Source: Phycisphaeraceae bacterium (GTDB lineage: Bacteria; Planctomycetota; Phycisphaerae; Phycisphaerales; Phycisphaeraceae). Taken from it: DNA of 64,000 nt. Position 1 is the first letter of the stretch, and every line of letters starts with the position of its first letter. Of this stretch, positions 16,191 to 50,263 are shown piece by piece. Below the pieces are notes generated by a model. It made no database searches. It saw only the letters and a program-made list of their open reading frames with translations, and was not told where the DNA came from. The stretch spans positions 4,384,001 to 4,448,000 of the forward strand of contig OY771506.1 of assembly GCA_963674705.1 (NCBI GenBank), written 5' to 3'. Both the position numbers and the translations under genes were made by a program.

Positions 16191-17279
16191 GTGAATGTGA
16201 GTACGAAAAGCGAAGCATCCAAAGCGACACAATGTGCCGCCTTGCTGATGGGCCCGAAGGATATTCAGTCGGGACAGGTGCCTGTGCCGGCTGCGCCCGG
16301 TAAGGGTGAAGCATTGATCCGTGTGACGCAGGTCGGTGTGTGTGGGTCGGACTTGCACACGTTTATCGACGGGCGGATCGGCGACACCGTGCCGGAGGGG
16401 CCGTTCGTATTGGGGCATGAGTTTGCGGCAGTTGTGGAAGCGGTTGGTGACGATACTCATGATGGATTCGGCAATGCGCTACAGGTCGGCCAGCGTGTTG
16501 CGGTCGAGCCGGCGCAGCCTTGCGGCAAATGTGAGTTATGCTTGACGGGTCATCCGAATCTGTGTCCGGATCACAAGTTCTGCGGTGTCTGGCCGACACC
16601 CGGCGCGCTGCAGGCGAAGATGGTCGTGCCGGGTGATACGTGTTTCCCCGTGCCGGACTGTATCGATGATGAGCAGGCGGCGCTGCTTGAGCCGATGGGC
16701 GTCGGGCTGCATGCGATCGATTTGGCGCATATCCACGTCGGGTACAGCGTCGCGGTCGTAGGCTCGGGAACGATCGGGCTCTGCTGTGCACAGGTTGCGA
16801 AGCTCGCAGGCGCGTCGCCGCTATTCGTGACGGATCGCTTGGCGCATCGGTTGAAGGTTGCGGAAAGCTATGGTGCAACGGCTGTCGACATCGAACTGTG
16901 TGATCCGGTGGAAGCGGTGATGCAGGCAACGAATGGCCGGGGCGTGGATGTTGCGATCGAGGCGGCCTGGTCGAGTAAAGACTCGGTCATGCAGGCGGTC
17001 GATATGCTCAGGCCCGGCGGACGGTTGGTGGTTGTCGGGATATCGGGTGATGACAAGCTGGAGTTCCAGCACTCGACGGTCCGCCGTAAGGGTGTGACGA
17101 TCGCGATGTGCCGGCGGATGAAACATACCTACCCGCGTGCGATTGAACTGGTCAGCACGGGTAAGTACACATTCGACGGGCTAGTCACACATCGTTACAA
17201 GTTAGATGAGACGACACAGGCCTTCGCCACCGCGGCCGACTATGACTCCGGTGGGGTGAAGGTGATGATTCAGGTCTAA
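16191..17279 (+). CDS. Zn-dependent medium-chain polyol/alcohol dehydrogenase
   Basis: GVCGSD, LGHE, structural-Zn CGKCELC...C and GSGTIG Rossmann motif; co-transcribed with araA. Confidence 0.88.
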   Translation: MNVSTKSEASKATQCAALLMGPKDIQSGQVPVPAAPGKGEALIRVTQVGVCGSDLHTFIDGRIGDTVPEGPFVLGHEFAAVVEAVGDDTHDGFGNALQVGQRVAVEPAQPCGKCELCLTGHPNLCPDHKFCGVWPTPGALQAKMVVPGDTCFPVPDCIDDEQAALLEPMGVGLHAIDLAHIHVGYSVAVVGSGTIGLCCAQVAKLAGASPLFVTDRLAHRLKVAESYGATAVDIELCDPVEAVMQATNGRGVDVAIEAAWSSKDSVMQAVDMLRPGGRLVVVGISGDDKLEFQHSTVRRKGVTIAMCRRMKHTYPRAIELVSTGKYTFDGLVTHRYKLDETTQAFATAADYDSGGVKVMIQV

Positions 17280-17406: not shown

Positions 17407-19512
17407 CTATCGTGAATGAATCTTTGCTACCGAGGTGAACGGAGGGCGGCCGTGTTCGTTGAATGGCTCGGCGCGGTAGTAGACCGCATTATCCTGCGGT
17501 GCTGAATTGTCGATGTATTGTGTCTGATTGGCGGGCAGTTCTGCAATGCAATCGGCGGTGCCTTTAGACCCATCAATGTATCGGTATATGCGCCAGCCAG
17601 TCGCGTTCTCGACATTCGTCCAACTGATTTTCACTTTGCCTGCGCTTTCGGCTTGTGCGTGAATCGCTTTGGGGGGCAGTGGGGTTTGCGGGGTTTGTTC
17701 CAGGCCGGAGGTCAGCCAGGCGAGGTTGATTCGCTCGAAGAGCATGCGCTGGTAACGTTTTGTGTCGCCCCATGAATAAAGCAGACCGATCGTGTGGTCG
17801 TCGAGTACGGTGAGACAGGAGTAGGCAGACCATCGCGGGTGTAGATGACGCTCGAAAGCCCAACTGAAACCTTCATCGTATGAGAGACGAATGGTCATGT
17901 TGATCCGACCTTCAGCGCCGTAGGGATAAATGTTGGCGGGATTGGATAAGATCAGACGGTCGCGGTCCTGTTGGTCGGCGCGTGTGTACCGGAGGATGCT
18001 TGCCTGACAGCCGCCGCTGTAGCCGACGGCTTGGCCGCCGGGGGAGATGAGTTGCGGCTGTTGCGTGACAGGCGACCATGTATCGCCAAGGTCGTTGCTA
18101 TATGACTGACACAAGAGCATTTTTCGGCTGCCGACGCGTCGCATGTTAAGCATAAGCCGGTCGTCGGATAATTCGACGACTTGCGCTTCGCTGACTCGGT
18201 CTCCTGCTTCGCCGCCGAGTTGCCAGGTTTGACCGTGATCGTCGCTGTAGAAGACAAGTGAACGCGAAGACCTGCCGTTATCGCTGCCTTCGTTGCGTGT
18301 GGCGGGGATGACGATTCGGCCGTCGGTTGTTTGAATGCCGACACCCGGGCCGGTGGCGAACCATAACCACTGTGGTTTGGTAACCGCGTCTGTGATTTCA
18401 ACAGGCTTGGACCATGTGACGCCGTGATCGTCGCTATACATCGTCCAGACGGTTCGTCTGCTTTCGGCCTTGCCTGCTTGAAGCACAGTCTGTGTGTCTT
18501 TTTCCAGGCTGTGACACGCGATCATCCAGACGCGACCGGTGTCGCGGTCGACGACAGGGGTTGGATTGCCGCAGGTGTTCGTACCATCGTCCCAGACAAC
18601 TTGCAGCGAGCCCCAGGTTTTGCCGCCATCGGTGCTGCGGCGCATAACAAGGTCGATATTGCCATAGTCAGCACCGGAATTCAGCCTGCCTTCTGAAAAC
18701 GCGAGGACCGATCCGTCTGTCGCGGTAACAACAGCAGGGATTCGGAAGTATGCGTAACCAAGATCACCGCCGAAGTCGCCGCTGATAAAAGGCACAGAAA
18801 CGGTCGGCGGATTCAGTTCGATCATCGATGCGACTTGTTCGGGCGTGAGTGCGTAGTCGTAGACCTTGACCTCATCGAGCAGACCATTGAAGTGGCGGAC
18901 GGGGTGGGCGTCTGTTCCGTCGTGGCCTAATCGCAACGGCTGAGATCTGACGACATCGCCCGGTAGAGAACCTAGTTGCTTACCATCGACATACAGGTAT
19001 ACGGTATCGCTATCACGCACAGCGACAAGGTGATGCCAACCCAGGTCAAACGGGAAGTCGAACGCTTTTTGCGATTCATTGATTCGGATATATATCTGGT
19101 CCTTATCGCCGCGGACGGCACTGATGGAAAAGTCCTCCGCGTCGCCGACCGCGATCATGTTTCGCAGCATGCTGTTGCCGCCGGGCGCTTGGGGGAATCG
19201 ACGGAACCAGTAGGCGATCGACCAGGTCTTGCCGGTGAAGAGTGCTTCTGAGTTGTCGATCACCACGACATCGTCAACGCCGTCCAGTGATAGTGCTCGC
19301 CCCTGATAGCCTGCGTCAACGACGGTAGCGCCGAACAATTGCCCATCATGCTTGTGTCGCATAGCGTCGAGGACATGTGTGTTATCTTCACAACGCTCAA
19401 AAGGCCAGTAGGCGACGGGTGGTTTGTTGATTGCTAGAGCTAAAGTGATATTTGCAGCACATAATAGTGACACAAGAGCAACACAGATTGCCATAATACT
19501 TCTAACGGTCAT
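17407..19512 (-). CDS. Secreted GH33 sialidase with N-terminal LamG and C-terminal FN3-like domains
   Basis: LamG (WHHLVAV, FNGLLDEVKVYDYALT), FRIP, several SxDxGxTW Asp-boxes and SAYS nucleophile Tyr. Confidence 0.9.
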   Translation of the reverse strand: MTVRSIMAICVALVSLLCAANITLALAINKPPVAYWPFERCEDNTHVLDAMRHKHDGQLFGATVVDAGYQGRALSLDGVDDVVVIDNSEALFTGKTWSIAYWFRRFPQAPGGNSMLRNMIAVGDAEDFSISAVRGDKDQIYIRINESQKAFDFPFDLGWHHLVAVRDSDTVYLYVDGKQLGSLPGDVVRSQPLRLGHDGTDAHPVRHFNGLLDEVKVYDYALTPEQVASMIELNPPTVSVPFISGDFGGDLGYAYFRIPAVVTATDGSVLAFSEGRLNSGADYGNIDLVMRRSTDGGKTWGSLQVVWDDGTNTCGNPTPVVDRDTGRVWMIACHSLEKDTQTVLQAGKAESRRTVWTMYSDDHGVTWSKPVEITDAVTKPQWLWFATGPGVGIQTTDGRIVIPATRNEGSDNGRSSRSLVFYSDDHGQTWQLGGEAGDRVSEAQVVELSDDRLMLNMRRVGSRKMLLCQSYSNDLGDTWSPVTQQPQLISPGGQAVGYSGGCQASILRYTRADQQDRDRLILSNPANIYPYGAEGRINMTIRLSYDEGFSWAFERHLHPRWSAYSCLTVLDDHTIGLLYSWGDTKRYQRMLFERINLAWLTSGLEQTPQTPLPPKAIHAQAESAGKVKISWTNVENATGWRIYRYIDGSKGTADCIAELPANQTQYIDNSAPQDNAVYYRAEPFNEHGRPPFTSVAKIHSR

Positions 19513-19559
19513 GCCGGCGACTCCTTAACGCTCATTCATATTCATGCAATGAAGTGTAT

Positions 19560-20804
19560 TTACTCTGCCGTTGGCAGGTCTTTGCCATCCAGCAGCCAGG
19601 CGAGGTTGAACTTGGCAATACAGATGTGCTTTGGAGCAAATGCGCCGAGGCCTTCCTTGACTCCGCCCCGCTCGAACAGGCAATAGATCGTGCCATCGTC
19701 TGCCACGGCCAGGTCGGTGTAACCGCTGCGATCAGGTTCGATCGTTCGGCTGACTGGCCAGGTTTTGCCATCATCGAAGCTGGCGCGGATGGTGACGTTG
19801 AGGCGCGAACGAGCTCCCCACTTCAAGACGACCTCATCACGGTGGCTGCTGTCGGGGCTGGTATAAAGCAGGATGTCCGGGCTCTTACCATCGGGATGCG
19901 GCATGCGAGTTAGGCTGGCCATGCAGATGGCGTCGTAAAGGCCCTCGTGAAACTCTGGCTCGCTCCAATCGGTTGCGCCGTCCGGGCTGATACTGATGAG
20001 TCGGCGGTACTTCTTGGATTGATTTCGGATGGATGACATCACCCGGCCGTCGGATAGCTCGACGAGTTGTGATTCACTTGGGCTGGGGACCTCTTCACTA
20101 TCATTAACGATGATGTCGCCGGCCTGCCAGGTCTTGCCACGATCGTCGCTGTAGATAGTAGATACGAGTGACGGGCGGTGTGAATGGTTCGGTGAAAGCC
20201 ATAGCGGTACGACGAATCGGCCGTTGCGCATCACAATGCCGTGGCCGGGCCCCATGGCGAGTACGGTCCATGGGTAATCATCTCGATCGCGGAATACATC
20301 AAAGACGTATGTGATCTCTTCCGGGGCAGACCAGGTTTCACCTTCATCTGTACTGACTTTGTGATATGCATGGTTGTAGTTGACCTGAAAGATCAGGTGA
20401 ACCGTATCGGTATCGGGTTCGACGATGAGGACGGGATTCTCGACGAGGTTTGTACCGTCGTCCATGATGATGGCCTGCTCGGTCCAGGTTTTGCCGCCAT
20501 CGGTGCTGCGTCGGATCATGGAATCGATGTTGACCCAGTCGCCGTGGCCGTCGAAGCGGGCGGAGCATAGGGCGAGGATGGTGCCCTTACGCGTGACAGC
20601 TAACGAAGGGATGCGGTAGGTCATGTAACCGTCGCGGCCGGCTTCATAGAGTTCGGTGACCTCGAAAAATGGTTTGTCATCCTTATTTGCCTTGGATTCG
20701 CCGACTGCCACGTGCGTTAGTGAAAGGCAGATGGTTAAGATGAACAGGACTATTACGTATGTTGGTTCAATTAATGATTTCAATAGAGGTCGCTTCTGAT
20801 TCAT
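19560..20804 (-). CDS. Secreted GH33 sialidase
   Basis: YRIP, Asp-boxes STDGGKTW, STDEGETW, SDDRGKTW and SFDDGKTW, SGYTD. Confidence 0.9.
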   Translation of the reverse strand: MNQKRPLLKSLIEPTYVIVLFILTICLSLTHVAVGESKANKDDKPFFEVTELYEAGRDGYMTYRIPSLAVTRKGTILALCSARFDGHGDWVNIDSMIRRSTDGGKTWTEQAIIMDDGTNLVENPVLIVEPDTDTVHLIFQVNYNHAYHKVSTDEGETWSAPEEITYVFDVFRDRDDYPWTVLAMGPGHGIVMRNGRFVVPLWLSPNHSHRPSLVSTIYSDDRGKTWQAGDIIVNDSEEVPSPSESQLVELSDGRVMSSIRNQSKKYRRLISISPDGATDWSEPEFHEGLYDAICMASLTRMPHPDGKSPDILLYTSPDSSHRDEVVLKWGARSRLNVTIRASFDDGKTWPVSRTIEPDRSGYTDLAVADDGTIYCLFERGGVKEGLGAFAPKHICIAKFNLAWLLDGKDLPTAE

Positions 20805-20870
20805 GATAACTCTCCAAGTGTCAATGGCCTGATCGTGGCAGGGATAGACATATTGATGTCGTCGGTATGT

Positions 20871-21833
20871 TTAACTGTGCTTACTAAGATCGATGAGATT
20901 AATAAGTGGCTGACTCTGGTGATATCGCATCAGATTTTCGATAAAGAGGTCACACAGGCGGTCATATTCCTGTACATAGCGCCCGGCGGTATGCGGCAGG
21001 ACGATGACGTTTGGCATGTCCCAGAATGGGTGATCGGCCGGGAGTGGCTCGGTTTCAAAGACATCCAGTCCTGCGCCGAAGAGGTGGCCCTCATTTAGTA
21101 CCTTAACCAGGTCTGATTCAACGACCAAAGCCCCCCTGCCGACGTTGTAGAAACATGAGCCCGGCTTCATTTTCCGGAACATGGATTCGTTGAACATGCC
21201 TTGCGTCTGTTTATTGGCCGGCAAGCTGAGTGCGACATGATCGCAATCCGGCAGGATACTGGCCAGATCATCAAAGCCGAAGATTTTCGCGACAGGTGGT
21301 TCCGGTTGCTCTTTGCCGGTACGTGTAACACCGATGACATTCATGCCGATACCGGTACAGCGTTTGGCTATCTCCATGCCGATTGAACCGAGTCCTACAA
21401 CACAAATGGTATCACCTGTAACCATGCGGTATGCATCCACTCGTTGCCAGAGATGCTGTTGCTGATCCCTGATATGCAGATTGATGCATCGGGATAAGGC
21501 AAACATCATCGCCAGGGTTTGTTCCGCACAGGCAACAGAGAAAATCCCCTTGGCGTTACACATGATGAAGTCTGTTTTTTTTTCGAGTCCACAATCCAGG
21601 TAGGGGTCGAAGCCGGCGCTACATAATTGGCAGAAGCGTATGTCTGAGTTGGCAACAGCCTTAGGATTAGGCCAGCCGACGACGATGTTGCAATCATGGA
21701 AAGCTTCGGTCTGAGTTGATTCGCCAAGCGTGTGGTCTACGCGATCTACTGTCGCCCAGCCTTCGACAACCTGTTGTATCTGTTGAAGGTGTTTATCTGT
21801 GAAGTGATTAACAGCAACCAGTATCTTTTTCAT
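20871..21833 (-). CDS. D-isomer-specific 2-hydroxyacid dehydrogenase
   Basis: GLGSIG, NVGRG, LDVFETEPL and PHTAG catalytic motifs. Confidence 0.92.
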   Translation of the reverse strand: MKKILVAVNHFTDKHLQQIQQVVEGWATVDRVDHTLGESTQTEAFHDCNIVVGWPNPKAVANSDIRFCQLCSAGFDPYLDCGLEKKTDFIMCNAKGIFSVACAEQTLAMMFALSRCINLHIRDQQQHLWQRVDAYRMVTGDTICVVGLGSIGMEIAKRCTGIGMNVIGVTRTGKEQPEPPVAKIFGFDDLASILPDCDHVALSLPANKQTQGMFNESMFRKMKPGSCFYNVGRGALVVESDLVKVLNEGHLFGAGLDVFETEPLPADHPFWDMPNVIVLPHTAGRYVQEYDRLCDLFIENLMRYHQSQPLINLIDLSKHS

Positions 21834-21848
21834 CGCAATACTCCCAAC

Positions 21849-23018
21849 TTATTCGTAAGCGCCCAGGACTTTGTAGTGCGTGCCCGGCTTGAAAGGATAC
21901 AGGGATTCGACTTGATCGGGCAGTTGCACACCGAGGCCCGGCACGGTCGGTGCCTTGAGCTTGCCATTTTTGATAATGATTGGATCAACCAAAAGGTTTT
22001 CACGTAGCGGGTTGGCGACACTTGGCACTTCCAGATACTTACAGCCCTCAGATGCAAATGCGGCGTGGAAGTTCCCCATCATGCCGATGCCACCGCTCCA
22101 AGCGTGAACCGCGATGGGAATCGATCGTTTCCAACAGAGATCGGCCACGGCTCGTAATACACTAATGCCGCCTATCAACGCGGCATCCGGCTGGAACAGG
22201 TCAAGTGCATCAGCTTCGATGTAGGCGTTGGCTTCATAAACACTGGTCGCGGTTTCTCCGCCGGCGATCTTGATCGGTGATTCGGCGCGGATGGCGGCGT
22301 ACGACTTGATATCGTTGACAGCGGCGGGTTCTTCGAGCCAAAGGATATTGTATGGTTCGATCGCACGGGCCACCGCCAAGGCGTAATCGACACACCATGG
22401 TTCTTGTGCCAATCCCTGTGCGGCATCGACCGCCAACTCACAGTCATCGCCGAGGGCATCTCGACAGATTTCGACTTTCTGAACGATCTGGCTTAATTCA
22501 GGCAGGTTGTTGATGCGGATCTTGACAGTGTTGAATCCCTGTTGGCGGTAGCCAACCATCTCTTCACGCAGTTCCGGTTCAGGCTTGGTGTTGCCGCCAC
22601 TTGCATAGACGGGGATTGCGTCGTGACATGGACCGCCAAGTAATTCATGAACCGGTTTGCTTTCACACTTGCCTTTCAGATCCCACAATGCGAGTTCGAT
22701 TCCGCCGATCACGCTCTGGTTCAGGCCGAAGCGTCCCCAATATCGGCTTGCCAGGTGGATACGCTGCCACACGGCCTGGATATCATGAGCATCCACACCA
22801 ATAAGGTCTGATTCAAATTGTTCGGTAAGCGCTTTAACTGCTTCAGGAGCGTAGACGCCGGCGTAGGTTTCACCGAGGCCGAACTGGCCGTCGTCTGTTT
22901 CGACGCGGATGATTGATGCGGAGCGTAGTCCGGTGCGTAGATGCAGGCGAACCTCATCGTCGCCGGGCGTAGCATACGGTGCGCTAAGTAGAATACACCT
23001 GACCGATCGGATCTTCAT
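21849..23018 (-). CDS. Mandelate racemase/muconate lactonising family enzyme (probable acid-sugar dehydratase)
   Basis: GLGE, ALWDLKGK, PVHELLGG, KIR, metal ligands D/E/E (VDA, LEEP, GET), VHAW and PGLG. Confidence 0.9.
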   Translation of the reverse strand: MKIRSVRCILLSAPYATPGDDEVRLHLRTGLRSASIIRVETDDGQFGLGETYAGVYAPEAVKALTEQFESDLIGVDAHDIQAVWQRIHLASRYWGRFGLNQSVIGGIELALWDLKGKCESKPVHELLGGPCHDAIPVYASGGNTKPEPELREEMVGYRQQGFNTVKIRINNLPELSQIVQKVEICRDALGDDCELAVDAAQGLAQEPWCVDYALAVARAIEPYNILWLEEPAAVNDIKSYAAIRAESPIKIAGGETATSVYEANAYIEADALDLFQPDAALIGGISVLRAVADLCWKRSIPIAVHAWSGGIGMMGNFHAAFASEGCKYLEVPSVANPLRENLLVDPIIIKNGKLKAPTVPGLGVQLPDQVESLYPFKPGTHYKVLGAYE

Positions 23019-23048
23019 AAGTATGTCCGTGTTGAATCGACTTCTTAA

Positions 23049-23978
23049 CTACTCAAATAATTCTGGTAACTGCTGCCGGGCAATCGGACGCAATCGCCCG
23101 GCCTCTACATCGGGAACACCCCGATAGGGCCAGCGCAGACGTGTGCCGACCTGGCTCCAATTACCCACTGCGGCAAGCAGCTTGTCTAACGCGGTATTAC
23201 TGTGACCGAGCTGATCGCGGTATGGCACGATGTGCTCTACCATGAACTGCATGATGCGTTTTTCCAGATCGAGTGCGGCAGCATAATCGGATTGAATCGA
23301 GGCCTGCCACTTCATCGCACCTTTAGGTGATAAGCAGGCTACGTTGCTGTATGAGCCATGAGCGCCGAGTGGCGTCATTGTGGCAAGTTCATGGCCCGGA
23401 ACAAAGATGGACAACCTCGGAGCGTGCTTCTTCATGGAAGCGAACCAATCCGCATCACCGCCGAGTACTTTCAGGCCGAAGAGTGTCGGGATGCGTTGAG
23501 CGAGCCGGCCGATACTCTCGAAGCCAAATGATCGTTTTGCGTGCCCCGGCATGTAAAGCACGAGACCGATTGGATCGACCGTTTCCGCGATCCGTTCGAG
23601 GAAGTCCCCCGCTTCCATCTCACTACAAGGCACCCAATCAGGCAAGATGACTTGGATAGCGCTGGGATTCAATGATTTGGCGCGGTGTGCGCGGCTGAGG
23701 CTGATGCGCGGGTCCATATGGCTAGCGCCGATCTGAAAAGGCATACCCATAGCTTCGCACTTTTCAGCCAGCAGTGCGTTGATGCGATCTGTTTCGGATT
23801 CATCCTGGTTGTGCAGTTCGCCGGTTGATCCGTTGGAGTAGATACCGTCGACCTGACAATCAATAAGGATATCGATCTCGTTTGCGAGATTGCCGAAGTC
23901 GATCGCATCATCGTCGACAATGGGCAACATGAGCGTACCCCATGTGCCTCGGATTTTGTTGGGATTTAAAGGTTTCAT
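23049..23978 (-). CDS. DHDPS/NAL-family class I aldolase, distinct from NanA
   Basis: NGSTGE, catalytic Tyr (LYMP) and Schiff-base Lys (GLKV). Confidence 0.87.
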   Translation of the reverse strand: MKPLNPNKIRGTWGTLMLPIVDDDAIDFGNLANEIDILIDCQVDGIYSNGSTGELHNQDESETDRINALLAEKCEAMGMPFQIGASHMDPRISLSRAHRAKSLNPSAIQVILPDWVPCSEMEAGDFLERIAETVDPIGLVLYMPGHAKRSFGFESIGRLAQRIPTLFGLKVLGGDADWFASMKKHAPRLSIFVPGHELATMTPLGAHGSYSNVACLSPKGAMKWQASIQSDYAAALDLEKRIMQFMVEHIVPYRDQLGHSNTALDKLLAAVGNWSQVGTRLRWPYRGVPDVEAGRLRPIARQQLPELFE

Positions 23979-24011
23979 AAATTACTCAAAGATTACCATT
24001 GAAGGGTTTGC

Positions 24012-27000
24012 TTATTCGGGATATTGCTTGAGCCATTCGACAAGTTTAGGCGTATCAAGAGTTCGGGTGAGACGGAAGACGGATGCAGGGCCGAGGTGCT
24101 GACCGAGGTAGATGAAGATGTGTTGGACGCCAGCCTCTTCATCGATAACCGCCCCACCGGGGTGCATACCATCGGCTCCAGTAACCATGATACCGCCACG
24201 AGTCATGAGCGTGCCTTCGAAACGCCAGTCACTACTACCTTCAGCAAGCTGCTGCGGATCAATGCTCCAGAGGTTGAGTGTCATACGGAGGCGTTGTTGC
24301 TCGTTACCTTGGCCCCCCCCGTTTCGGTTGGTGCAAACGGCTTCATAGCGTTTGGTGACGGGATTGAAGTCAAGCGCGACCGTATCCTGGGAAAATGGAC
24401 CATAGCCGACAATGTCTACCTCGTCGCGGACATCAGTGGCGCGTATCGTCGTCAGAGCGGGTGTTAGGGGCAACCAGCCATCAGGGGAATAAGCCTGCAT
24501 ATAACGCCAGGTTTTGCGCTCGGGCTCGAAGCTTTCTTTGCCATGACATCGAGCAACCATAACCATGGCGTTGTTGTGAAGGATGACAGTGGGTTCTATG
24601 GCATACGCCCATGGTTCGGGCATGTTGTAGATAATCTGCTCCCAGTCGCGTCCGCCGTCTTTCGAATAACGCACGATAAGCTCTTCGTTCTTGCCGTGTC
24701 CGAATGATACGATCCCATACTCAGGGTGCTCGAGAAGTTTAGGACCATTACAGATGACTGGACCGGGGATGTCATCCTCGCCGTAGGCTTGAGGGTGATG
24801 CTCCCATGATGCGCCACGGTCGGTAGAAGTGAATACACCATAGGGCGATACCAGCACAATCTCACCGTTGGATCTTCTGACCATACCATTACCAAAACTG
24901 ACCCGGCAGTTCTTTGTTTCCTGTTTAACGTATGTACGGATATCAATCGGCTTTGACCAGGTGCTGCCGCCATCATTGGAACGTGTGATGACCGTTTCGC
25001 TGAAGTATTTATCTTTGGGCTTCTTGATACCCCAACGTGGTGTATGCTGAGGTTTTCGCAGGAATGCAACGATAATAGTATCGCCATCCTTGACCGCAAC
25101 CGGCCAGCCGAGGTGGCTGTTATTACCGAGCAGATTTTCACCGTAGGGTACTACAACGGGTTTAAGCACCAGGGGGCCGGTGTCATGCGAATACTTTTCT
25201 TTGAGGAATCGTGTGACACGCAGCGAACGGGCGATCACCTCTTCACGATCACCAAAAGAAGGCGAGCGATCGAGATCTATCATTGATAGTGCCCTCCCAT
25301 CAGCGGGTGTGGGCAGGCCCGTATTTGTCAGAGCTTCGTGGACTGTCGTTGCGATGATGCCGGCAGCATAATCATCGGGGTGGATCTTGTCGGCAAAGTG
25401 ATCGCCCAGATCCTTTAAAGGTGTATTCATATCAATCGTTGCCACGCCGGTTTCGGCAACGACGCGGTCGATCGCCTGCTGGATCACTTCAAGGCGCGGG
25501 TCCTGATAGAACTTGTGGCCTTCGTAGATCGGAGCGAGTTTACCCCAGATGAATACCTTTGGCTTGCTGGGCAGTTTACGGTATGAATCGATCAGAGCTT
25601 CATAGTCCTTAATAAACAGGTCAGGATCGAATGGGTCTTCGTTCACATCGTTAATACCCAGATTGATGATGACGATGTCGGGATTGTGGACGATGGATCG
25701 GCGGTATGGGAGTTGCAATGCATAGCCGCGGTCCCAGTTCTTTAATACAAAACCGTTGACGACTGTTGATCCGGACACGCCGTAGTTACGGACGTCGAAC
25801 AAGGGGCCGAGTTGATCTTCTAGCTGGGCCGGATAGCTGTAAATGTTAGCGTTGCTCGTGCCCATGCCGTACGTGATGCTGTCGCCTACGCAAGCGACAC
25901 GGAGCGTGTGCCAATTATCTGTGCGGAAAGGCGCAGCGGGCAGGCCTTCACTGTTGTAAAGCGTGACGGGCGGGTAGGATTCCCATGCATATCTGACGGC
26001 GACGGGATGGCTGACATTATCGCTTGTAAGAACGATCTTGTTGTTTACCAGTTCTGCCTTAGCCTTGGCGAAACGTTTATCTTCGCCGGCGATCCAGAAA
26101 CCGCTATCGCCTGATTCGCTTTCGCGTAGTTCCAGGCCGTTGGCGGTGTTGTTAAAAGTCAGCACGAGTGCGCCGTTATCCGGGCTGACGGATTTAAGTG
26201 TGGGGCCGGTATCAACGATTGTTTTGCCATACACACGGCTGAGTGCAAGTCGGGCCATGCGTTGGCCGACAGGTAGCTTGTTGCGAGGGTGGACATTCTT
26301 CGGGTCCCCCATGTCGATCGTCACAGCTAATCCGGATCGGGTCGCTTCAGACAGATCGGCCTGGCTCTCACGGAATTCGGGCCAGGCGTATCGGTAGATG
26401 CCCGGGAGTTGGGCGCAAATAACGGGTAAATCCTGTCTCCCAAAGGCATCCCGCCAGGACTTCACCGCCATAGGGAACATCATGTTGTGCAGGCGGATGT
26501 CCTCAGCGTTGGATTCACCCTGATACCAGATGATGCCGGCAACCGGAAGACCTTTATACGGTTCGATACCAGCCTGATACATGAAGCCGGACCGGTAATG
26601 GTGTTCTGCCTTCTTGCCGGGCTTACCTGCGTCGACCCATTCCTTGAGATGTAGGCTGGCACGTTCGTTTACGAATATGTCAGCAAGGGCGCAGTCGAGA
26701 AATTCGTCTTCGAGCTTGCGTAACTCAGGATCATCAACGATCTGTTGGCGAGGAATCCATGCCTGGACGGGTGTGCCCCCCACCGCCACGTCTATCAGGC
26801 CGATGGGCACGTTCAATTCATCATGGAGCATCATGCCGAAGTAATAGCCGATGGCGGAGAATCGGCCGGACACTTCTTCATCGCCATGGGTCCAACCTTC
26901 ATACGCAAAGAAACTCTTCGGGGTTAGCGTCTGATCGAGTTCAAGCGGCCAGGCCTGTTTGCCCCAAGGCGTGGTGATCTGCGGATCAAACAAACGGATA

Positions 27001-27476
27001 CCATCGATGTTCTGACTTTCTAAGGCAGTTTGTTCGCCCTCGGGCGTCAGCTTGAGCGTCCATGCCATGTTGGATTGGCCGGCACATATCCAGACTTCAC
27101 CTATAAGGATGTCCTGTAGCGTAATCGTTTCATCTGCGGCTTTGATGGTCAGCGTTTGTCCCTGATCATTTGCGGGCATTGCATCCAATACGACACGCCA
27201 GTTGCCGTTGGTATCGGCCTTGGTGCTGACTTGCTGGCCTGCGAATGAGACTTCAACCGAGGCGTCGGGGGAAGACTTACCCCAGATAGGCATCGGGACG
27301 TCTCGTTGGATGACCATGTGACTGGTAAACACATGGGGTAATACAAGGTCACTACCTTGTGCGACCGCAGTGCACCAACCAAGAAAAACGCAAGCGAAAC
27401 AGAAAACCCTGAAGCTATTTAGCCATGACATGCGAGAACGTATGAGATCCATCCCGTAGTATTCCTTGTTATCCAA
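24012..27476 (-). CDS. Tri-domain secreted protein: sialate O-acetylesterase + second SGNH/GDSL esterase + Asp-box beta-propeller
   Basis: GEVWICAGQSNM, WYQGESN and VHPRNK (SASA); GDSIT, LGIND and DKIHP (GDSL); SNDGGSTW, STDRGASW and SKDGGRDW Asp-boxes. Start uncertain (27476, 27452 or 27431). Confidence 0.85.
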   Translation of the reverse strand: MDNKEYYGMDLIRSRMSWLNSFRVFCFACVFLGWCTAVAQGSDLVLPHVFTSHMVIQRDVPMPIWGKSSPDASVEVSFAGQQVSTKADTNGNWRVVLDAMPANDQGQTLTIKAADETITLQDILIGEVWICAGQSNMAWTLKLTPEGEQTALESQNIDGIRLFDPQITTPWGKQAWPLELDQTLTPKSFFAYEGWTHGDEEVSGRFSAIGYYFGMMLHDELNVPIGLIDVAVGGTPVQAWIPRQQIVDDPELRKLEDEFLDCALADIFVNERASLHLKEWVDAGKPGKKAEHHYRSGFMYQAGIEPYKGLPVAGIIWYQGESNAEDIRLHNMMFPMAVKSWRDAFGRQDLPVICAQLPGIYRYAWPEFRESQADLSEATRSGLAVTIDMGDPKNVHPRNKLPVGQRMARLALSRVYGKTIVDTGPTLKSVSPDNGALVLTFNNTANGLELRESESGDSGFWIAGEDKRFAKAKAELVNNKIVLTSDNVSHPVAVRYAWESYPPVTLYNSEGLPAAPFRTDNWHTLRVACVGDSITYGMGTSNANIYSYPAQLEDQLGPLFDVRNYGVSGSTVVNGFVLKNWDRGYALQLPYRRSIVHNPDIVIINLGINDVNEDPFDPDLFIKDYEALIDSYRKLPSKPKVFIWGKLAPIYEGHKFYQDPRLEVIQQAIDRVVAETGVATIDMNTPLKDLGDHFADKIHPDDYAAGIIATTVHEALTNTGLPTPADGRALSMIDLDRSPSFGDREEVIARSLRVTRFLKEKYSHDTGPLVLKPVVVPYGENLLGNNSHLGWPVAVKDGDTIIVAFLRKPQHTPRWGIKKPKDKYFSETVITRSNDGGSTWSKPIDIRTYVKQETKNCRVSFGNGMVRRSNGEIVLVSPYGVFTSTDRGASWEHHPQAYGEDDIPGPVICNGPKLLEHPEYGIVSFGHGKNEELIVRYSKDGGRDWEQIIYNMPEPWAYAIEPTVILHNNAMVMVARCHGKESFEPERKTWRYMQAYSPDGWLPLTPALTTIRATDVRDEVDIVGYGPFSQDTVALDFNPVTKRYEAVCTNRNGGGQGNEQQRLRMTLNLWSIDPQQLAEGSSDWRFEGTLMTRGGIMVTGADGMHPGGAVIDEEAGVQHIFIYLGQHLGPASVFRLTRTLDTPKLVEWLKQYPE

Positions 27477-27494
27477 ATTAATGTAGTGTAATAA

Positions 27495-28664
27495 TCAGGC
27501 CTTCTGGTATGCGTCGATCACTTCTTTAGCATCGTTGAAGTCTTTGGATTCGTAGGTCATAACGATACCGGTGGGCCATTTTTGTCTGGCTTCGCCGCTG
27601 ATCAGTGCATCACGCCCTGGCTGATGGTTCGTAAAGGGGACACCGGCTGCCATGGTTTGCTGATAGATCGCGTCGACATCCATCATCCAGGGTTGGCCCA
27701 GGTCGAAGCCTTTCATGCCGGGTGTTTGGAGCATGGGTGCGATGAGGTGCTGGCCGTCGCCACAGAAGTGCAGCGTACCGCCACCGACGGCTTCTAGCAG
27801 ACGACCATCGTGCTTACGAACCTGCTCCGCGTACATGTCGGCGGACATCATGATGGCCGAGTCATTACGGATCAGCAGTCGGCCGGGCAGCTCCCATGCA
27901 TGCTGTGCTGAACCGAATGGATCGAGCCGATCAGTCGTGAATGCGCGGAACTTTGGCTCAACCATCAGCATGACATCGACGATCCGCTGAAGCAAAAGAT
28001 CGACCAAGTCGGGCTGTTCGTAAAATGCGATGAACATGTCGCTGCCCCACAGCAGGTCCGCGGTATCAAGCGGGCCTTGCAGGTCGGGCATGGCGATTTG
28101 GATTACGCGCTGAGCGTTAGGATATTTGGCGAGTTTTTCCGTGTAGTAGTTCAGCGTGGCAAATGAACGTTCGAGGATACCGCCGTACTCGAGGTCTGGC
28201 TCGGATTGATCGTTGGCGATGGCTTCGATTTCAGGACCGGTGCCGAAAGGTTTAATCCAGGGTGGATTGTTTTCGTGTTGCTCCCAGTGCCCACCCAGAA
28301 GCGATGCGATCTGGATGATGCCGTGGTTGTTGCGGATCAACATAGGGCTGTCATCTTTCAGTAGCAGCCCGGGCACAACGGAGGTCAACAATTCGTTGTG
28401 CATCATCGCGATCGGGCTATTGAATGCCACCTGATATGGATACACGCTGAACTTGTCGAAAGGCTCAGGGAGTGTCATCGCGGAGCTGAAAGGCAGGCGA
28501 CAGACAAGCGGCGGACGATCCACATCCTCGCAGACAAGTGCACTGCGATATCGGCTATCCACCTGGTTGCAATGCTCCTGATCAGCAAGGCGGTCGATGT
28601 GTTCAAGAAGTAGATCTAACTTATTTTCAGAAACTTCAACCGCTGCTTCTGAGTGTACAGACAT
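27495..28664 (-). CDS. Uroporphyrinogen decarboxylase / MtaA-CmuA methyltransferase-like TIM barrel
   Basis: DRPP, DLQGPLDTA, NDSAIMMS and LHFCG motifs typical of URO-D-like proteins. Function unknown. Confidence 0.7.
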   Translation of the reverse strand: MSVHSEAAVEVSENKLDLLLEHIDRLADQEHCNQVDSRYRSALVCEDVDRPPLVCRLPFSSAMTLPEPFDKFSVYPYQVAFNSPIAMMHNELLTSVVPGLLLKDDSPMLIRNNHGIIQIASLLGGHWEQHENNPPWIKPFGTGPEIEAIANDQSEPDLEYGGILERSFATLNYYTEKLAKYPNAQRVIQIAMPDLQGPLDTADLLWGSDMFIAFYEQPDLVDLLLQRIVDVMLMVEPKFRAFTTDRLDPFGSAQHAWELPGRLLIRNDSAIMMSADMYAEQVRKHDGRLLEAVGGGTLHFCGDGQHLIAPMLQTPGMKGFDLGQPWMMDVDAIYQQTMAAGVPFTNHQPGRDALISGEARQKWPTGIVMTYESKDFNDAKEVIDAYQKA

Positions 28665-28712: not shown

Positions 28713-28748
28713 ATAATAAAATGCGGGCGCCTGTGGTGGGGCGCCCGC
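28713..28748 (-). terminator. Intrinsic terminator-like hairpin between the PEP-CTERM gene and the catabolic operon
   Basis: 9-bp GC stem GCGGGCGCC/GGCGCCCGC with an 8-nt loop, followed on the minus strand by ATTTTATTAT. Confidence 0.6.
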
Positions 28749-28830: not shown

Positions 28831-30090
28831 TTAACGACGACGCAGGATTGCCAAGCCACCGAGACCGAGCAGTGCGAGCGTCGCGGGTTCCGGGACGACG
28901 GAAGTCGGGGGCGTACCTTCATTCCAGTGGTTGAGGACGATATCGAGGTCATCGAGACCGACATAACCGTCGCCAGACGGATCCGCAGCGGCGTCAGCCG
29001 GAGGCACGTTCTGGTTCCATGCCTGGAGGATGATGTCCAGGTCGTCGAGGCCGACGAAGCCGTCTTTGTTCAGGTCACCCGGGATATCCGGTGTACCTTC
29101 GACATAGGCTGCTTCATACTGTGCGAGGATTTCTTCAGGGGTTAAAGCACGATTCCATGTAGCGACGGCGTCCATGTCACCATTATAACGGTGGGCGTTT
29201 ACACGGCCCTTGCCGAGGCGGTTACGGAAGTCGAAGTCCATGATGTCGTCGAAGACGCCGGGGTTATTGACCGGGTCCGATTCCTGAAGGATGGGGGCAT
29301 ACGAGGTGGAGTCGAAAGCGGTAGAAACCTGCTCACCACCACCGAGCGTACCGCCGTCGATGTAGAGGTTGAGCATGCCAGCATCGGTGCCCATATCATA
29401 CGACCAGGTCGCAGCGACGTGGTGCCATTCACCGTCAGAATAATCGACGACACCCGAGGTGCCATTGGAGATGGTGATAAATTCACCCTCTTCCAGATTC
29501 AGCATGAATATGCCGTTACCGCTGGGCAGGTCCCAGAGCCGGAGGTTAAGGTTGTGGCCGCTGCCTTCATCGCCGCGCCAGAGCACGCCTGCGAAGTCAC
29601 CGTCCGGGCTGGGATCGGTTGATTTGACCCACATGCTGATCGAACTGCCAGCCATGGTCATGGGATTGTGTGCGGTATCCGGGGCGTTTACACCTTCGTT
29701 AAACAAGTGCGTGACCACACTGCCGGAACCCGAGGTGTTAAAGTTGTATGCGTTGTTTGTGGCTTCAAAACCAAGGAAGCCGTCCGCGGGACGCAACCCG
29801 GGAACTTCCATCTGGATATCGGAGCCGGCGTTGGTGTCGTTGTAGTAGACATCGGTGCCCAGCAGCGTATCCAGATTATCGATCTCGGCGATGATCGGGG
29901 CGACAGCCACCGGATCAACCGGTTCGGCATCATCCAGGCCGAAGTAGATCAAGGGCGTTTGACTTGCGATGACGTCCTGATAGTTACCCGCTTGCGCGGA
30001 CTGGCTGCCTATACCCAGCAGCATCACACCACAGGGTAGCGCCATCAGCAGCCGTGCGGTCCTTTTCATTCCCAGTTTCTCTCGCAACAT
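28831..30090 (-). CDS. LamG/concanavalin-like protein with dockerin-like repeat and PEP-CTERM sorting signal
   Basis: Signal peptide, DGEWHHVAATW, two GDxxxDGxVGLDDLDI repeats, VPEPATLALLGLGGLAILRRR. ATG 30090 with GGAGG. Confidence 0.88.
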   Translation of the reverse strand: MLREKLGMKRTARLLMALPCGVMLLGIGSQSAQAGNYQDVIASQTPLIYFGLDDAEPVDPVAVAPIIAEIDNLDTLLGTDVYYNDTNAGSDIQMEVPGLRPADGFLGFEATNNAYNFNTSGSGSVVTHLFNEGVNAPDTAHNPMTMAGSSISMWVKSTDPSPDGDFAGVLWRGDEGSGHNLNLRLWDLPSGNGIFMLNLEEGEFITISNGTSGVVDYSDGEWHHVAATWSYDMGTDAGMLNLYIDGGTLGGGEQVSTAFDSTSYAPILQESDPVNNPGVFDDIMDFDFRNRLGKGRVNAHRYNGDMDAVATWNRALTPEEILAQYEAAYVEGTPDIPGDLNKDGFVGLDDLDIILQAWNQNVPPADAAADPSGDGYVGLDDLDIVLNHWNEGTPPTSVVPEPATLALLGLGGLAILRRR

Positions 30091-30605
30091 GTTCACCTCC
30101 AAAGTTCAAAGTATGGAAACACCTCTCGGCGAAGTTAAATCTGTTTGGCCTGATCCTTATTAAGATCAATACCAGACAGCTTGTGACATCTATTATTCAG
30201 TTGATGTGACTAATCCTTCCAAGCCCCCCGTCATTATCAGTGCCATTTAGCGTATGGCTGTTATCCCATACTCACCAGGCAATGTAACCCATAAACCTCT
30301 CACAATGGCAAATATATCTGATTCCGAGCCAGTGTCAATAGATATTTCTATACTTAAAGAAAATTTATTAGACGCTCAACACACATCGAACAGACCAGTA
30401 AATCGTAAAAACTCGACCGGCATTGTTATTTTAAATATATATTTTACAATATATTATGGATTTTAATTCCGATTTTTGACTGCACCCCATTTTAAACAGC
30501 TGCCATACCTAATTGGCCTAATAACTGTTTTTATTGCCACGATCGGCACTTTTTGACAGAAATACATCTTGCAATCAGAAAATAATTAATCTATACTATA
30601 AGCAG

Positions 30606-38841: not shown

Positions 38842-39146
38842 GATGAGGTGTTTTCCAAGTGGCAGGAACGGTCTAATTGATACAAGCAGCATAATGGTAA
38901 AGGAATCTGCACGCAACAAGTATTTTTAGATTATACGAAATATATTAAACCCTGCCAATCAGGCCTATAGGCCCGGACAGGCCCAATAATTGAGGTTTTG
39001 GACAAGCCTCATGCCAGTCATATGAGAGAAAAGTGGGTATATGGCACACAATCTGCTCTCCCACAGCCCAGACCAGGTTCCCCAAGCACTCGTGTATATG
39101 ATATTAATTATTGATATCATTGATTTTATGGAATTAATAATATATC

Positions 39147-40945: not shown

Positions 40946-41059
40946 TCTTCGGACTCACCCGGCACGGATCCGGTGAGATCCGCCAGGTAATGCAGCCCAA
41001 TCGGGTGATGAGTATCGGCTGTCATGCGTGCGTGTGACACGTGGAGGAGTACAAGGAAG

Positions 41060-43183: not shown

Positions 43184-43185
43184 AG

Positions 43186-45234: not shown

Positions 45235-45253
45235 TCACAAAGGATCTTTTCTT

Positions 45254-48693: not shown

Positions 48694-48748
48694 TATGTGA
48701 TATAAATACTAACCATACGCCAATATCGTCACAATTCTATGAACTGTT

Positions 48749-50227: not shown

Positions 50228-50263
50228 GCCACGGTTTAGCACACACAGTAAATAGATGGAATC

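Follow-up and report, generated by a model that had tools for sequence, protein, structure and literature searches.

A seven-gene operon beside the nan genes of a Phycisphaeraceae bacterium suggests sialic acid utilization extended by an uncharacterized lyase clade, demethylation and oxidative processing

Organization of the operon

Here we describe a seven-gene operon in a 64,000-nucleotide stretch of DNA from a Phycisphaeraceae bacterium (GenBank assembly GCA_963674705.1, contig OY771506.1, positions 4,384,001-4,448,000). This whole stretch, hereafter the window, sits in a single-contig genome of 5.54 Mb (G000; G-numbers denote genomes and L-numbers the loci or contigs compared), whose nearest named relatives are metagenome-assembled genomes (MAGs) of the Phycisphaeraceae and Phycisphaerales (for one protein, 90% identity in L011 and 71% in L012). 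At positions 17407-28664 of the window, seven minus-strand open reading frames (ORFs) follow one another head to tail in the ORF list. In the order of transcription they encode P0001 (27495-28664; 389 aa), a cytoplasmic protein of predicted MtaA/URO-D fold and a candidate methyl-ether:corrinoid methyltransferase; EST (24012-27476; 1154 aa), a putative secreted esterase with SASA and GDSL/SGNH domains and a C-terminal BNR_2-like propeller; ALD (23049-23978; 309 aa), a divergent class I aldolase of the dihydrodipicolinate synthase/N-acetylneuraminate lyase (DHDPS/NAL) family and the signature gene of the module; ENO (21849-23018; 389 aa), an enolase-superfamily member of the mandelate racemase subgroup, predicted to be an acid-sugar dehydratase or cycloisomerase; HADH (20871-21833; 320 aa), a predicted cytoplasmic D-isomer-specific 2-hydroxyacid dehydrogenase; SIA2 (19560-20804; 414 aa), a predicted secreted GH33-type sialidase; and, as the last gene, SIA1 (17407-19512; 701 aa), a predicted secreted protein joining LamG to a GH33-type sialidase. 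The intergenic gaps, counted from the SIA1 end, are 47, 66, 15, 30, 33 and 18 nt, which bears out an original prediction of seven co-directional genes with short gaps (15-66 nt). Every gene assignment in that prediction proved right by Pfam, P0001 being URO-D/MtaA-like only by its fold and through homologs that carry PF01208, while a sulfatase that it had counted as part of the locus is encoded outside the operon, at 48749-50227.

Signal-like N-termini are present on SIA1, SIA2 and EST and signal peptides are absent from P0001, ALD, ENO and HADH, none of which reaches any NCBIfam equivalog cut-off. A terminator-like hairpin on the minus strand (28723-28748, read as 28748-28723; a 9-bp all-GC stem, an 8-nt loop and a T-rich tail; ATTTTATTAT) is located between an upstream gene for a LamG/PEP-CTERM surface protein and P0001, and because it parts the two it suggests that the seven genes form a separate unit. 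The 58 nt between the hairpin and P0001 showed no sigma-70-like promoter. The locus is syntenic in two related genomes, with protein identities of 87-98% in L011 and 57-78% in L012.

The secreted proteins are the most readily classified. SIA1 matches Laminin_G_3 (73.9 bits) and BNR_2 (109.8 bits), and its translation holds an N-terminal hydrophobic signal-like segment, the sequence Y-F-R257-I-P and five Asp-box-like S/x-D-x-G-x-T/S-W motifs. SIA2 matches BNR_2 (110.9 bits), carries Y-R64-I-P and five Asp-box-like motifs, and has bacterial sialidases as its best solved relatives (4bbw, 119.5 bits; 1eur, 115.6 bits). With a BNR propeller, the (F/Y)RIP arginine and Asp boxes, both are predicted GH33 enzymes, and homologs of SIA2 (39-46% identity) adjoin homologs of ALD and P0001 in other phyla. 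EST has a signal-like N-terminus and matches SASA (61.5 bits, in two stretches), Lipase_GDSL_2 (88 bits) and BNR_2 (33.7 bits); the combination of SASA (PF03629) with SGNH/GDSL in a secreted protein marks it as a putative sialate O-acetylesterase, and a reading of the translation found no RIP motif in its propeller part.

A divergent aldolase clade tied to sialic acid loci

ALD matches PF00701 over residues 10-248 with 53.7 bits (cut-off 22.1), against 180 bits for the canonical NanA of the window (35118-36074, minus strand; NCBIfam NanA 171.3 bits, cut-off 281). It reaches neither NanA equivalog (TIGR00683, 47.7 bits for a cut-off of 382; NF003164, 50.6 bits for a cut-off of 281), and its identity to NanA-type proteins is 16-24%. 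Residues K170 and Y142 of ALD align with K165 and Y137 of Escherichia coli NAL (1hl2), which we take to be the Schiff-base lysine and the catalytic tyrosine of that enzyme, its S47 and T48 presumably lying in the carboxylate-binding G-(S/T)-T-G-E motif. Among 58 distinct members of the ALD family, K170, Y142, K148, H196, D114, W115 and N212 are invariant (58/58) and R282 nearly so (56/58); positions 51-54 are T/S, A/T, G and E, and a nearly invariant Asn49 stands directly before the G-(S/T)-(T/A)-G-E motif. The Schiff-base lysine, the tyrosine, the carboxylate motif and the PF00701 match make ALD a predicted member of the DHDPS/NAL family. The GxDE motif of NAL (G189, D191, E192), which we take to bind the glycerol tail of the sugar, aligns with P194-G195-H196-E197 of ALD, so that His196 replaces Asp191; position 197 is variable in the family (H, L, Q, A and R are commonest), with E in the protein of the window. 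As judged from this motif and from the equivalog scores, ALD lacks the signature of NanA proper. A 9-O-lactyl, sulfated or phosphorylated tail as the ligand of ALD was suggested only by K148, H196 and R282 and was set aside, and Dha or aldarate-type substrates and an oxidative ManNAc route were likewise considered and set aside.

The AlphaFold2 (AF2) model of ALD (mean pLDDT, the model's local confidence measure, 93.4) is closest to E. coli NAL (2wnn; E 1.8e-18, template modeling (TM) scores 0.82/0.85), and its TM score to Corynebacterium glutamicum NAL is 0.85. In a quick maximum-likelihood tree, 68 ALD rows form one clade against 26 other rows, made up of NanA-like neighbors, the NanA of the window and the other DHDPS paralogs of the genome, with an SH-aLRT branch support of 99 and a separating branch of 2.41 changes per site. 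This upholds the prediction of an aldolase distinct from NanA, as does the replacement of GxDE. The family comprises 3165 clusters at E<=1e-30, and 442 relatives were found in a metagenome scan.

Gene neighborhoods were studied for the best 80 of these 442 relatives (50-72% identity), 28 of the 80 loci being shorter than 5 kb. All ORFs of the 80 metagenome loci were clustered and the cluster representatives named by Pfam; the filter applied to the ORFs left that of ALD in place in 65 loci, and in 14 others it was displaced by an antisense ORF. Counted in this way, the commonest neighbors of ALD were GH33 proteins (21/80), NanA-like DHDPS proteins (18/80), GntR-FCD regulators (16/80), Opp-type ABC transporter parts (13-15/80), NanM (11/80), enolase-family proteins (8/80), HADH (7/80), sulfatases (5/80), two clusters of URO-D-family proteins (5/80 each) and, with 3/80 each, GlcNAc 2-epimerase (AGE), NanE-ROK fusions and Ldh_2. 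A tblastn search with the proteins of the window found a sialic acid marker (GH33, a NanA other than ALD, NanM-SSF or AGE) in 29 of the 80 loci and in 23 of the 52 that are at least 5 kb long, and eight control proteins from the window matched in 0-1 of the 80. Some loci, such as L145, L161 and L101, show no DHDPS-family gene other than ALD, which stands there with GH33, NanM and a transporter. Since ALD often shares an operon with a NanA-type gene and is elsewhere the only lyase, it is likely a second lyase with a specificity of its own and not a spare NanA. FAH, GFO, GMC, PfkB and GNAT proteins were considered as recurrent partners and dropped, each occurring in 0-4 of the ALD loci (80 in all) and in 0-1 of 49 P0001 loci (described below).

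Homologs of ALD with 41-58% identity are also found in 146 plasmid records of Rhizobium, Sinorhizobium, Neorhizobium and Phyllobacterium. On pSymB of S. meliloti the gene lies with NanR, a DctPQM-type TRAP transporter and N-acetylneuraminate lyase (NanA), and on pRL12 of R. johnstonii 3841 a GntR gene, ABC transporter parts, a DHDPS-family gene and ABC ATPases accompany ALD. One rhizobial copy (H43) bears the label N-acetylneuraminate lyase in the NCBI annotation pipeline (PGAP). ALD thus belongs to a separate, large and widespread clade that is tied to sialic acid loci. On two rhizobial megaplasmids (L169 and L170), the ALD homolog stands in an operon of NanR/GntR, transporter and lyase, with no sialidase nearby.

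The enolase-superfamily protein and the 2-hydroxyacid dehydrogenase

ENO matches MR_MLE_C (178.3 bits) and MR_MLE_N (52.1 bits). Its best NCBIfam families are arabinonate dehydratase (174 bits), talarate/galactarate dehydratase (167.5 bits) and galactonate dehydratase (164 bits), whose equivalog cut-offs of 650, 500 and 311 bits, respectively, it does not reach, and its best matches in the PDB are cycloisomerases or dehydratases, including sugar-acid cycloisomerases. Residues K166, R168, D198, E229, E230, E255, D278 and H305 are invariant in 27 homologs. With both domains, three carboxylates that we take to be the metal ligands and a His-Asp pair that is presumably the dyad of the mandelate racemase subgroup, ENO is a predicted member of that subgroup of the enolase superfamily. 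The KxR motif that had been predicted is K166-I167-R168, invariant in the 27 homologs; it stands in place of KxK at the end of strand 2, the second lysine of which we take to be the S-specific base. Close homologs number 141 clusters at E<=1e-80, among them Adhaeretor, Aeoliella, Paenibacillus and Opitutaceae. HADH matches 2-Hacid_dh_C (PF02826, 182.7 bits), and its best NCBIfam family is D-2-hydroxyacid dehydrogenase (206.6 bits for a cut-off of 400), no equivalog being reached; its translation contains G147xG149xxG152, presumably the NAD motif, together with R233, E262 and H281, which we take to be the Arg-Glu-His catalytic triad, as befits a putative D-isomer-specific 2-hydroxyacid dehydrogenase.

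Genes for ALD, HADH and an enolase are contiguous in four other loci (L114, L123, L130 and L131), with overlapping stop and start codons, and the trio is partly assembled in a further four (L085, L098, L099 and L117). The HADHs of the trio are 36-44% identical to that of the window. One independent ortholog of ENO with gene context was found, in the locus L030, where it has 60% identity and stands between a P0001 homolog and a NanA-type gene. The original prediction hinged in part on the four cytoplasmic enzymes co-occurring with GH33 genes. This holds for the relatives of ALD and P0001, which keep company with GH33, NanA and NanM in other phyla; for ENO and HADH it is indirect, running through the trio with its more distant enolases, and no true ENO ortholog was found among 700 sampled genomes. 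We infer from the chemistry of their families that ENO and HADH may handle the non-pyruvate fragment of the sugar by a non-phosphorylative oxidative route.

P0001 and the corrinoid question

P0001 matched no Pfam model at E<=0.001, PF01208 included, and no NCBIfam model, and neither its single sequence nor a 29-row profile matched a PDB entry; a minority of its homologs have a precomputed match to PF01208. Its AF2 model (pLDDT 94.7) has Methanosarcina mazei MtaA as the top Foldseek match (4ay7; E 1.8e-12, TM 0.65/0.74), followed by more than 20 URO-D entries and then, weakly, by MetE, so that the modeled fold is that of MtaA/URO-D. Invariant in 29 homologs are H299, C301, G302, D104, D105, R111, D268 and D321. 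The His-x-Cys pair (H299, C301) aligns with H-x-(C/D)-G of ordinary PF01208 paralogs; we take the MtaA-type zinc site to be His-x-Cys ... Cys, and the invariant D321 of P0001 could be a metal ligand. To be demethylated, an ether of the aliphatic kind would have to be activated by a Lewis acid, like methanol in MtaB, and a zinc site at His299/Cys301 would fit that need.

From species genomes 52 loci were collected, of which 49 hold a true relative of P0001 (at least 31% identity), 43 of these being at least 5 kb long. A sialic acid marker (GH33, NanA, NanM-SSF or AGE; tblastn) was found in 28 of the 49 and in 27 of the 43, and control proteins matched in 0-2 of the 49. A homolog of ALD is present in eight loci, among them loci of Prolixibacteraceae and Chloroflexia, and other URO-D paralogs in 18. 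An RraA-like gene (aldolase/decarboxylase family) follows the P0001 homolog in eight loci (L025, L026, L034, L035, L038, L039, L040 and L057), and FAD_oxidored (PF12831) is directly beside it in seven (L013, L025, L026, L028, L029, L035 and L036). For 12 chosen loci with 186 listed ORFs, Pfam naming of P0001 neighbors covered 99 ORFs, which came from ten of these loci. In the Prolixibacteraceae the conserved order is GH33, P0001, RraA, GH33, (URO-D), MFS, ALD and URO-D, and at L013:10997-14602 a single protein of 1202 aa joins FAD_oxidored to a BNR_2 propeller and to Golvesin_C.

The genome of the window carries a corrinoid island at 5,503,750-5,511,736 (L080:3751-11736), 1.09 Mb away, with the order URO-D, corrinoid protein (CoP, with D97-x-H99-x-x-G102), AraC, Amidohydro_2, RACo (the activator of CoP), DUF1638 and URO-D. 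The island lies among sugar genes (GH4, GH3, GxGYxYP, DUF2961, FGGY and PfkB kinases and a sugar ABC transporter), a setting that hints at a wider use of demethylation on methylated sugars by the organism. One P0001 locus of the 49, from the Chloroflexota (L030, extended as L172), holds in a single co-directional string a full corrinoid methyl-transfer chain. It runs from an Opp-type ABC transporter through the P0001 homolog (36% identity), the ENO ortholog, a NanA-type gene, a sulfatase on the other strand, NanA, NanE and a ROK kinase to URO-D, CoP, RACo, a 243-aa protein, PF13769, MTHFR and a second URO-D, and ends with two GFO oxidoreductases, GNAT, a sulfatase, an FAH-family protein and a LamG+BNR_2 sialidase. 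A homolog of MTHFR is also present in L033.

RACo tracks the P0001 family at the level of genomes. Among 41 relatives, it was found in five of the five that have a P0001 ortholog (E<1e-60) and in five of the 36 that do not; within the genus the counts are 3/3 and 0/8, the RACo match of G007 being a fragment at a contig end. Fifteen P0001-bearing genomes, picked for taxonomic spread before looking, yielded RACo in 13, and one of the two without it has small corrinoid proteins. In a sample of Planctomycetota, RACo was present in all ten genomes with a P0001-like hit (E<=1e-30) vs 112 of 300 overall. No conserved core corrinoid module was found around RACo in other P0001 genomes, CoP standing beside RACo in one of six regions examined. 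A complex model of P0001 with the CoP of its own genome scored 0.76, the best of three controls scoring 0.00; this mark is reached by 116 of 157 solved complexes and by 2 of 215 mismatched pairs. At least 84% of contacts are common to the runs, the pLDDT of the partner is at least 84, and the modeled interface includes W136 and C301 of P0001 and the H99-G102 loop of CoP, all of which supports binding of the two in the model. We regard corrinoid-dependent methyl transfer as the most likely single job of P0001, though we hold this tentatively, at somewhat less than an even chance. The earlier suggestion that O-methyl groups might be removed is weakened by the lack of a CoP in the operon and in 48 of the 49 loci, and it gains from CoP and RACo elsewhere in the genome, from the tracking of the family by RACo, from the complete chain in L030/L172 and from the modeled complex.

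Elsewhere, a Victivallales contig (L062:1241-12832) carries about seven URO-D-family paralogs with CoP, RACo and DUF1638, an array that looks like a multi-substrate methyltransferase battery. Many RACo_C_ter matches, spread over many unrelated genomes, are interrupted in their frame by a single stop (TGA, TAG or TAA), for example G016:C1:2072474-2073208 and G024:C2:68010-68762; a gene boundary, a frameshift or recoding could each account for it.

Discussion

Our findings point, with slightly better than even confidence, to the seven genes being an accessory operon for harvesting and catabolizing a variant ulosonic (sialic-acid-like) sugar beside the canonical nan genes, by a route that likely includes corrinoid-dependent O-demethylation. 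We infer its catalytic steps as follows. SIA1 and SIA2 would release the sugar outside the cell, EST would strip its O-acetyl groups, and the sugar would enter via the neighboring NanM-SSF protein. P0001 may then pass the methyl ether group of the sugar to the CoP encoded 1.09 Mb away, which RACo would keep reduced. ALD, with Schiff-base Lys170, Tyr142 and a distal pocket remodeled around His196, would cleave the sugar acid to yield pyruvate and an aldose, and ENO and HADH might take the oxidized aldose fragment through a 2-keto-3-deoxy acid along a non-phosphorylative branch. As a rough estimate for the substrate, a sialic acid that is O-methylated or otherwise modified in its tail and a Kdn-type sugar are about equally possible, a Kdo-type sugar is a little less so, and some other ulosonic acid is a little more so. 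Natural O-methyl ulosonic acids offer a lead, namely 8-O-methyl sialic acids and 5-O-methyl-Kdo, and a Kdo aldolase is, to our knowledge, an orphan without a sequence. A more specific version of the proposal is that P0001 is the substrate-specific methyltransferase of a corrinoid O-demethylase acting on such ulosonic acids, with CoP and RACo in trans, that ALD is a lyase dedicated to the sugar once demethylated, or to a non-Neu5Ac sugar, and may be the orphan Kdo aldolase, and that ENO, HADH and a dehydrogenase burn the aldose non-phosphorylatively; this we put forward as a doubtful possibility, well short of an even chance.

Several observations weigh against the proposed operon function. No corrinoid protein is encoded in the operon and neither CoP nor RACo in the window. 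All but one of the 49 P0001 loci lack both within 10 kb, and all 80 ALD loci lack both as well. P0001 does not reach PF01208, and its 29 homologs have no conserved second Cys of the MtaA-type zinc site. The three genomes of the genus that have both P0001 and RACo are also its largest. In one P0001-bearing genome (G339, a 3.0-Mb MAG of unknown completeness), the search turned up a MetH-sized match but neither RACo nor a small CoP. RACo is common, being found in 112 of the 300 Planctomycetota, so its co-occurrence with P0001 may partly reflect lifestyle or genome size, and two of the ten P0001-like hits in that sample are full length. The score of the complex is a model confidence obtained without cofactors and may reflect family likeness. 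On the side of the other enzymes, 51 of the 80 ALD loci showed no sialic acid marker by tblastn, 28 of the 80 being shorter than 5 kb; orthologs of ENO (E<=1e-60 or E<=1e-90) were found in none of 300 other Planctomycetota and none of 400 other Chloroflexota genomes sampled, with only 4-6 candidates scored per genome; and the four loci in which the trio is contiguous are closely related in the ALD tree, their enolases being 25-42% identical to ENO. The operon also lacks the aldose dehydrogenase and the lactonase of a non-phosphorylative route, and it contains no transporter.

The most probable alternative concerns P0001 alone and leaves the rest of the operon as proposed. P0001 may have nothing to do with corrinoids or methyl groups and may instead be a TIM-barrel enzyme, independent of cofactors or dependent on a metal, that serves as a decarboxylase, hydrolase or isomerase of the sugar acid, URO-D itself being a cofactor-free decarboxylase. 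The distance of CoP and RACo from nearly all family loci and the lack of a conserved second Cys speak for this, as do the partners of P0001 (RraA-like proteins, PF12831 and URO-D paralogs), which are not the classic parts of an O-demethylase, and the RACo of three family-bearing genomes (two Bacteroidota and one Verrucomicrobiae), which has neither CoP nor URO-D as a neighbor. MtaA as the best structural match, the invariant His-x-Cys, the co-occurrence with RACo in 5/5, 13/15 and 10/10 genomes, the CoP, RACo and MTHFR genes of L030/L172, the MTHFR homolog in L033 and the separation of the complex model from its controls all argue the other way, and we consider a non-corrinoid P0001 possible, with the balance of probability clearly against it.

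A second alternative takes the four cytoplasmic enzymes as a generic non-phosphorylative sugar-acid pathway for an ordinary neutral sugar, such as arabinose, galactose or mannose, from the same glycans, in which ALD would cleave a C5 or C6 2-keto-3-deoxy acid and not a C8/C9 ulosonic acid. A chain of dehydrogenase, enolase-type dehydratase and DHDPS-type aldolase is known from archaeal Entner-Doudoroff (ED) and pentose (D-arabinose) oxidation routes, where it consists of a medium-chain (MDR) dehydrogenase, an enolase-superfamily aldonate dehydratase and a DHDPS-family KD(P)G aldolase, and the glucarate/galactarate pathway is a dehydratase-aldolase-reductase route. ENO, ALD and an adjacent Zn-dependent MDR dehydrogenase (16191-17279, plus strand; ADH_N, ADH_zinc_N and Glu_dehyd_C, 48 bits) belong to the same three families, and HADH is of the reductase type. 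This dehydrogenase gene, convergent on SIA1 across a 127-nt gap, ends an araB-araD-araA string, so that it and araBDA directly adjoin the operon, and it is conjectured to encode a sugar 1-dehydrogenase that might feed ENO. The best families and PDB matches of ENO, the missing tail-binding motif of ALD, the GMC oxidoreductase that precedes HADH and ENO in L085, and the GFO oxidoreductases and FAH-family protein of L030/L172 all fit a generic pathway. Against it, the proteins score well short of every equivalog cut-off, the module sits within sialidase/NanM/NanA loci, and 72 of the 80 ALD loci have no enolase-family neighbor, from which it follows that the substrate of ALD is not usually made by an enolase. 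ALD is, moreover, often directly beside GH33, NanM or a sialic-type transporter and is the sole DHDPS-family gene seen in some loci (L145, L161 and L101, for example), its model is closest to NALs, and the rhizobial operons hold only a regulator, a transporter, ALD and NanA; a generic pathway is in our view unlikely.

That ALD is simply a redundant, fast-evolving paralog of NanA that cleaves Neu5Ac, in an ordinary extra sialidase/esterase operon that has caught unrelated metabolic genes, is highly improbable: its full set of catalytic residues, the NALs as its closest structures and the PGAP name of the H43 copy are met by the 16-24% identity to NanA-type proteins across a branch of about 2.4 changes per site, the invariant His in place of Asp191, the presence of a NanA-type gene in the same operon in rhizobia and at least 18 loci, a point against simple redundancy, and the ALD-ENO-HADH order and the link to P0001 conserved in other lineages.

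Canonical nan clusters, as set out in a 2023 review, combine NanA, NanM, a sialidase, a NanS/EstA-type O-acetylesterase, an SSS, TRAP or ABC transporter and either AGE or NanK/NanE (PMC10017367). The operon resembles them in its predicted secreted GH33 sialidases, SASA+SGNH esterase and NAL-fold class I lyase; it differs in that the lyase belongs to a separate clade without the GxDE motif and in that enolase-type, D-2-hydroxyacid dehydrogenase and MtaA-fold enzymes have no role in the nan pathways described. The words enolase, dehydratase, hydroxyacid, uroporphyrinogen and O-methyl do not occur in the text of that review (PMC10017367). According to the same review, a sialic acid aldolase of Sphingobacterium sp. 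is specific for Kdn, with a single polar residue, Asp50, setting the specificity (Nakagawa et al. 2022; PMC10017367); as there described, it sets an example of a lyase in the NanA family whose dedicated substrate is a sialic acid other than Neu5Ac. A correspondence of its Asp50 with Asn49 of ALD is a guess. The outer part of the operon, with its sialidases and SASA/SGNH esterase, is ordinary, and the inner part lies outside the described nan pathways.

Corrinoid O-demethylases consist of methyltransferase I, a corrinoid protein, methyltransferase II and RACo in acetogens and Desulfitobacterium, and methanogens have the related MtaABC. Features shared with these systems are the MtaA fold and His-x-Cys of P0001, the DxHxxG-bearing CoP, RACo and DUF1638 of the genome, the MTHFR that a related nan cluster adds, and the modeled P0001-CoP interface, which uses the His loop. 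Here, unlike there, CoP and RACo would act in trans, and P0001 has neither the conserved second zinc Cys nor a match to PF01208. The substrates of corrinoid methyl transfer that we know of are aryl methyl ethers, methanol, methylamines and betaines, and never a carbohydrate. In marine bacteria, by contrast, a cytochrome P450 is reported to demethylate 6-O-methyl-D-galactose (PMC6292453). That route likewise takes a methyl ether off a sugar so that catabolism can proceed, and it differs in its oxygen-dependent chemistry and unrelated enzyme family, the operon holding no P450. It is the only sugar demethylation in the literature searched (PMC6292453). The search returned no description of the module, of a URO-D-like protein in sialic acid loci or of corrinoid-dependent sugar demethylation; most subscription journals lay outside it, and others may have priority.

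Sialic acid catabolism is considered well mapped, yet a clade related to NanA with more than 3000 clusters occurs in nan operons from Planctomycetota to Rhizobium without an assigned function, and it repeatedly travels with MtaA/URO-D-fold, enolase-type and 2-hydroxyacid dehydrogenase families that are foreign to the textbook pathway. We regard the locus as one of sialic acid utilization that is extended by an uncharacterized NAL-like lyase clade and by enzymes pointing to demethylation and oxidative processing. Were P0001 a demethylase dependent on corrinoids, an anaerobic route of demethylation would exist for methylated acidic sugars and the first corrinoid-dependent demethylation of a carbohydrate would be at hand. 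Given how far the family has spread, over phyla of soil, freshwater and the sea and over rhizobial megaplasmids, this would then be a common and overlooked branch of acidic-sugar turnover. Because ALD is present in genetically tractable rhizobia (S. meliloti pSymB and R. johnstonii 3841 pRL12), the question is directly testable. We see the main outputs of this work in the ALD clade and its signature (K170, Y142, K148 and H196), in its presence in rhizobia and in the association, seen across genomes, of the MtaA-fold family with the machinery of corrinoid activation. The original interpretation, an undescribed route for a modified or alternative keto-acid sugar, is partly supported by these results; echinoderms as the source of such a sugar are speculative.

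Genomic surroundings

Upstream of the hairpin, the LamG and PEP-CTERM surface protein (28831-30102, minus strand; Laminin_G_3 58.2 bits, PEP-CTERM 25.7 bits) has a promoter-like site of its own at 30338-30311, with 11 of 12 positions matched, and its gene keeps its position in L011 and L012. Divergent from it lies a gene for a GntR-family protein (30534-31688, plus strand; GntR HTH 34.2 bits), which adjoins the locus also in L011 (91% identity) and L012 (72%) and is a candidate regulator of the locus. The canonical nan genes are about 6 kb from the operon. NanM-SSF (36118-38919, minus strand; NANM 104.7 bits, SSF 138.7 bits), the only transporter near the operon, is a single ORF of 933 aa that joins a NanM-type Kelch mutarotase to a sodium:solute symporter; homologs in the Bacteroidota loci L029 and L036 have 35-38% identity over more than 90% of the length. 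AGE is encoded at 52349-53539, in the window and outside the operon. Six further BNR_2 genes lie on the plus strand at 39224-52342 in a tandem array interrupted by the sulfatase gene. Three of the six proteins (41024-47320) have a C-terminal LamG and a very similar architecture, and the frames 41024-43183 and 43090-45234 overlap by 94 nt. The genome holds 18 BNR_2 matches, ten of them in the window, and nine DHDPS-family matches. Since the window holds NanA, NanM-SSF, AGE and further BNR_2 genes, the operon appears to be an addition to, and not a replacement of, the ordinary sialic acid set.

A third GH33 locus of the same genome (4.598-4.617 Mb; L164:3477-18691 corresponds to 4.601-4.617 Mb) carries on one strand LamG, a pseudopilin-like N_methyl gene, four BNR_2 genes, SSF, an IU_nuc_hydro-like gene, DHDPS (220 bits), URO-D (132 bits), PfkB and a second URO-D (51 bits), which makes the pairing of URO-D, GH33 and DHDPS a theme within the organism as well as across phyla. 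In the remainder of the window, a DUF5722 protein (356.8 bits; 53630-55732, minus strand) adjoins the AGE gene, and two sensor-kinase ORFs lie within 8487-11868 on the plus strand, the first with CHASE8-HAMP-PAS-HATPase_c and the second with a further HATPase_c; as listed they overlap by 227 nt, and the true start of the second is probably further downstream.

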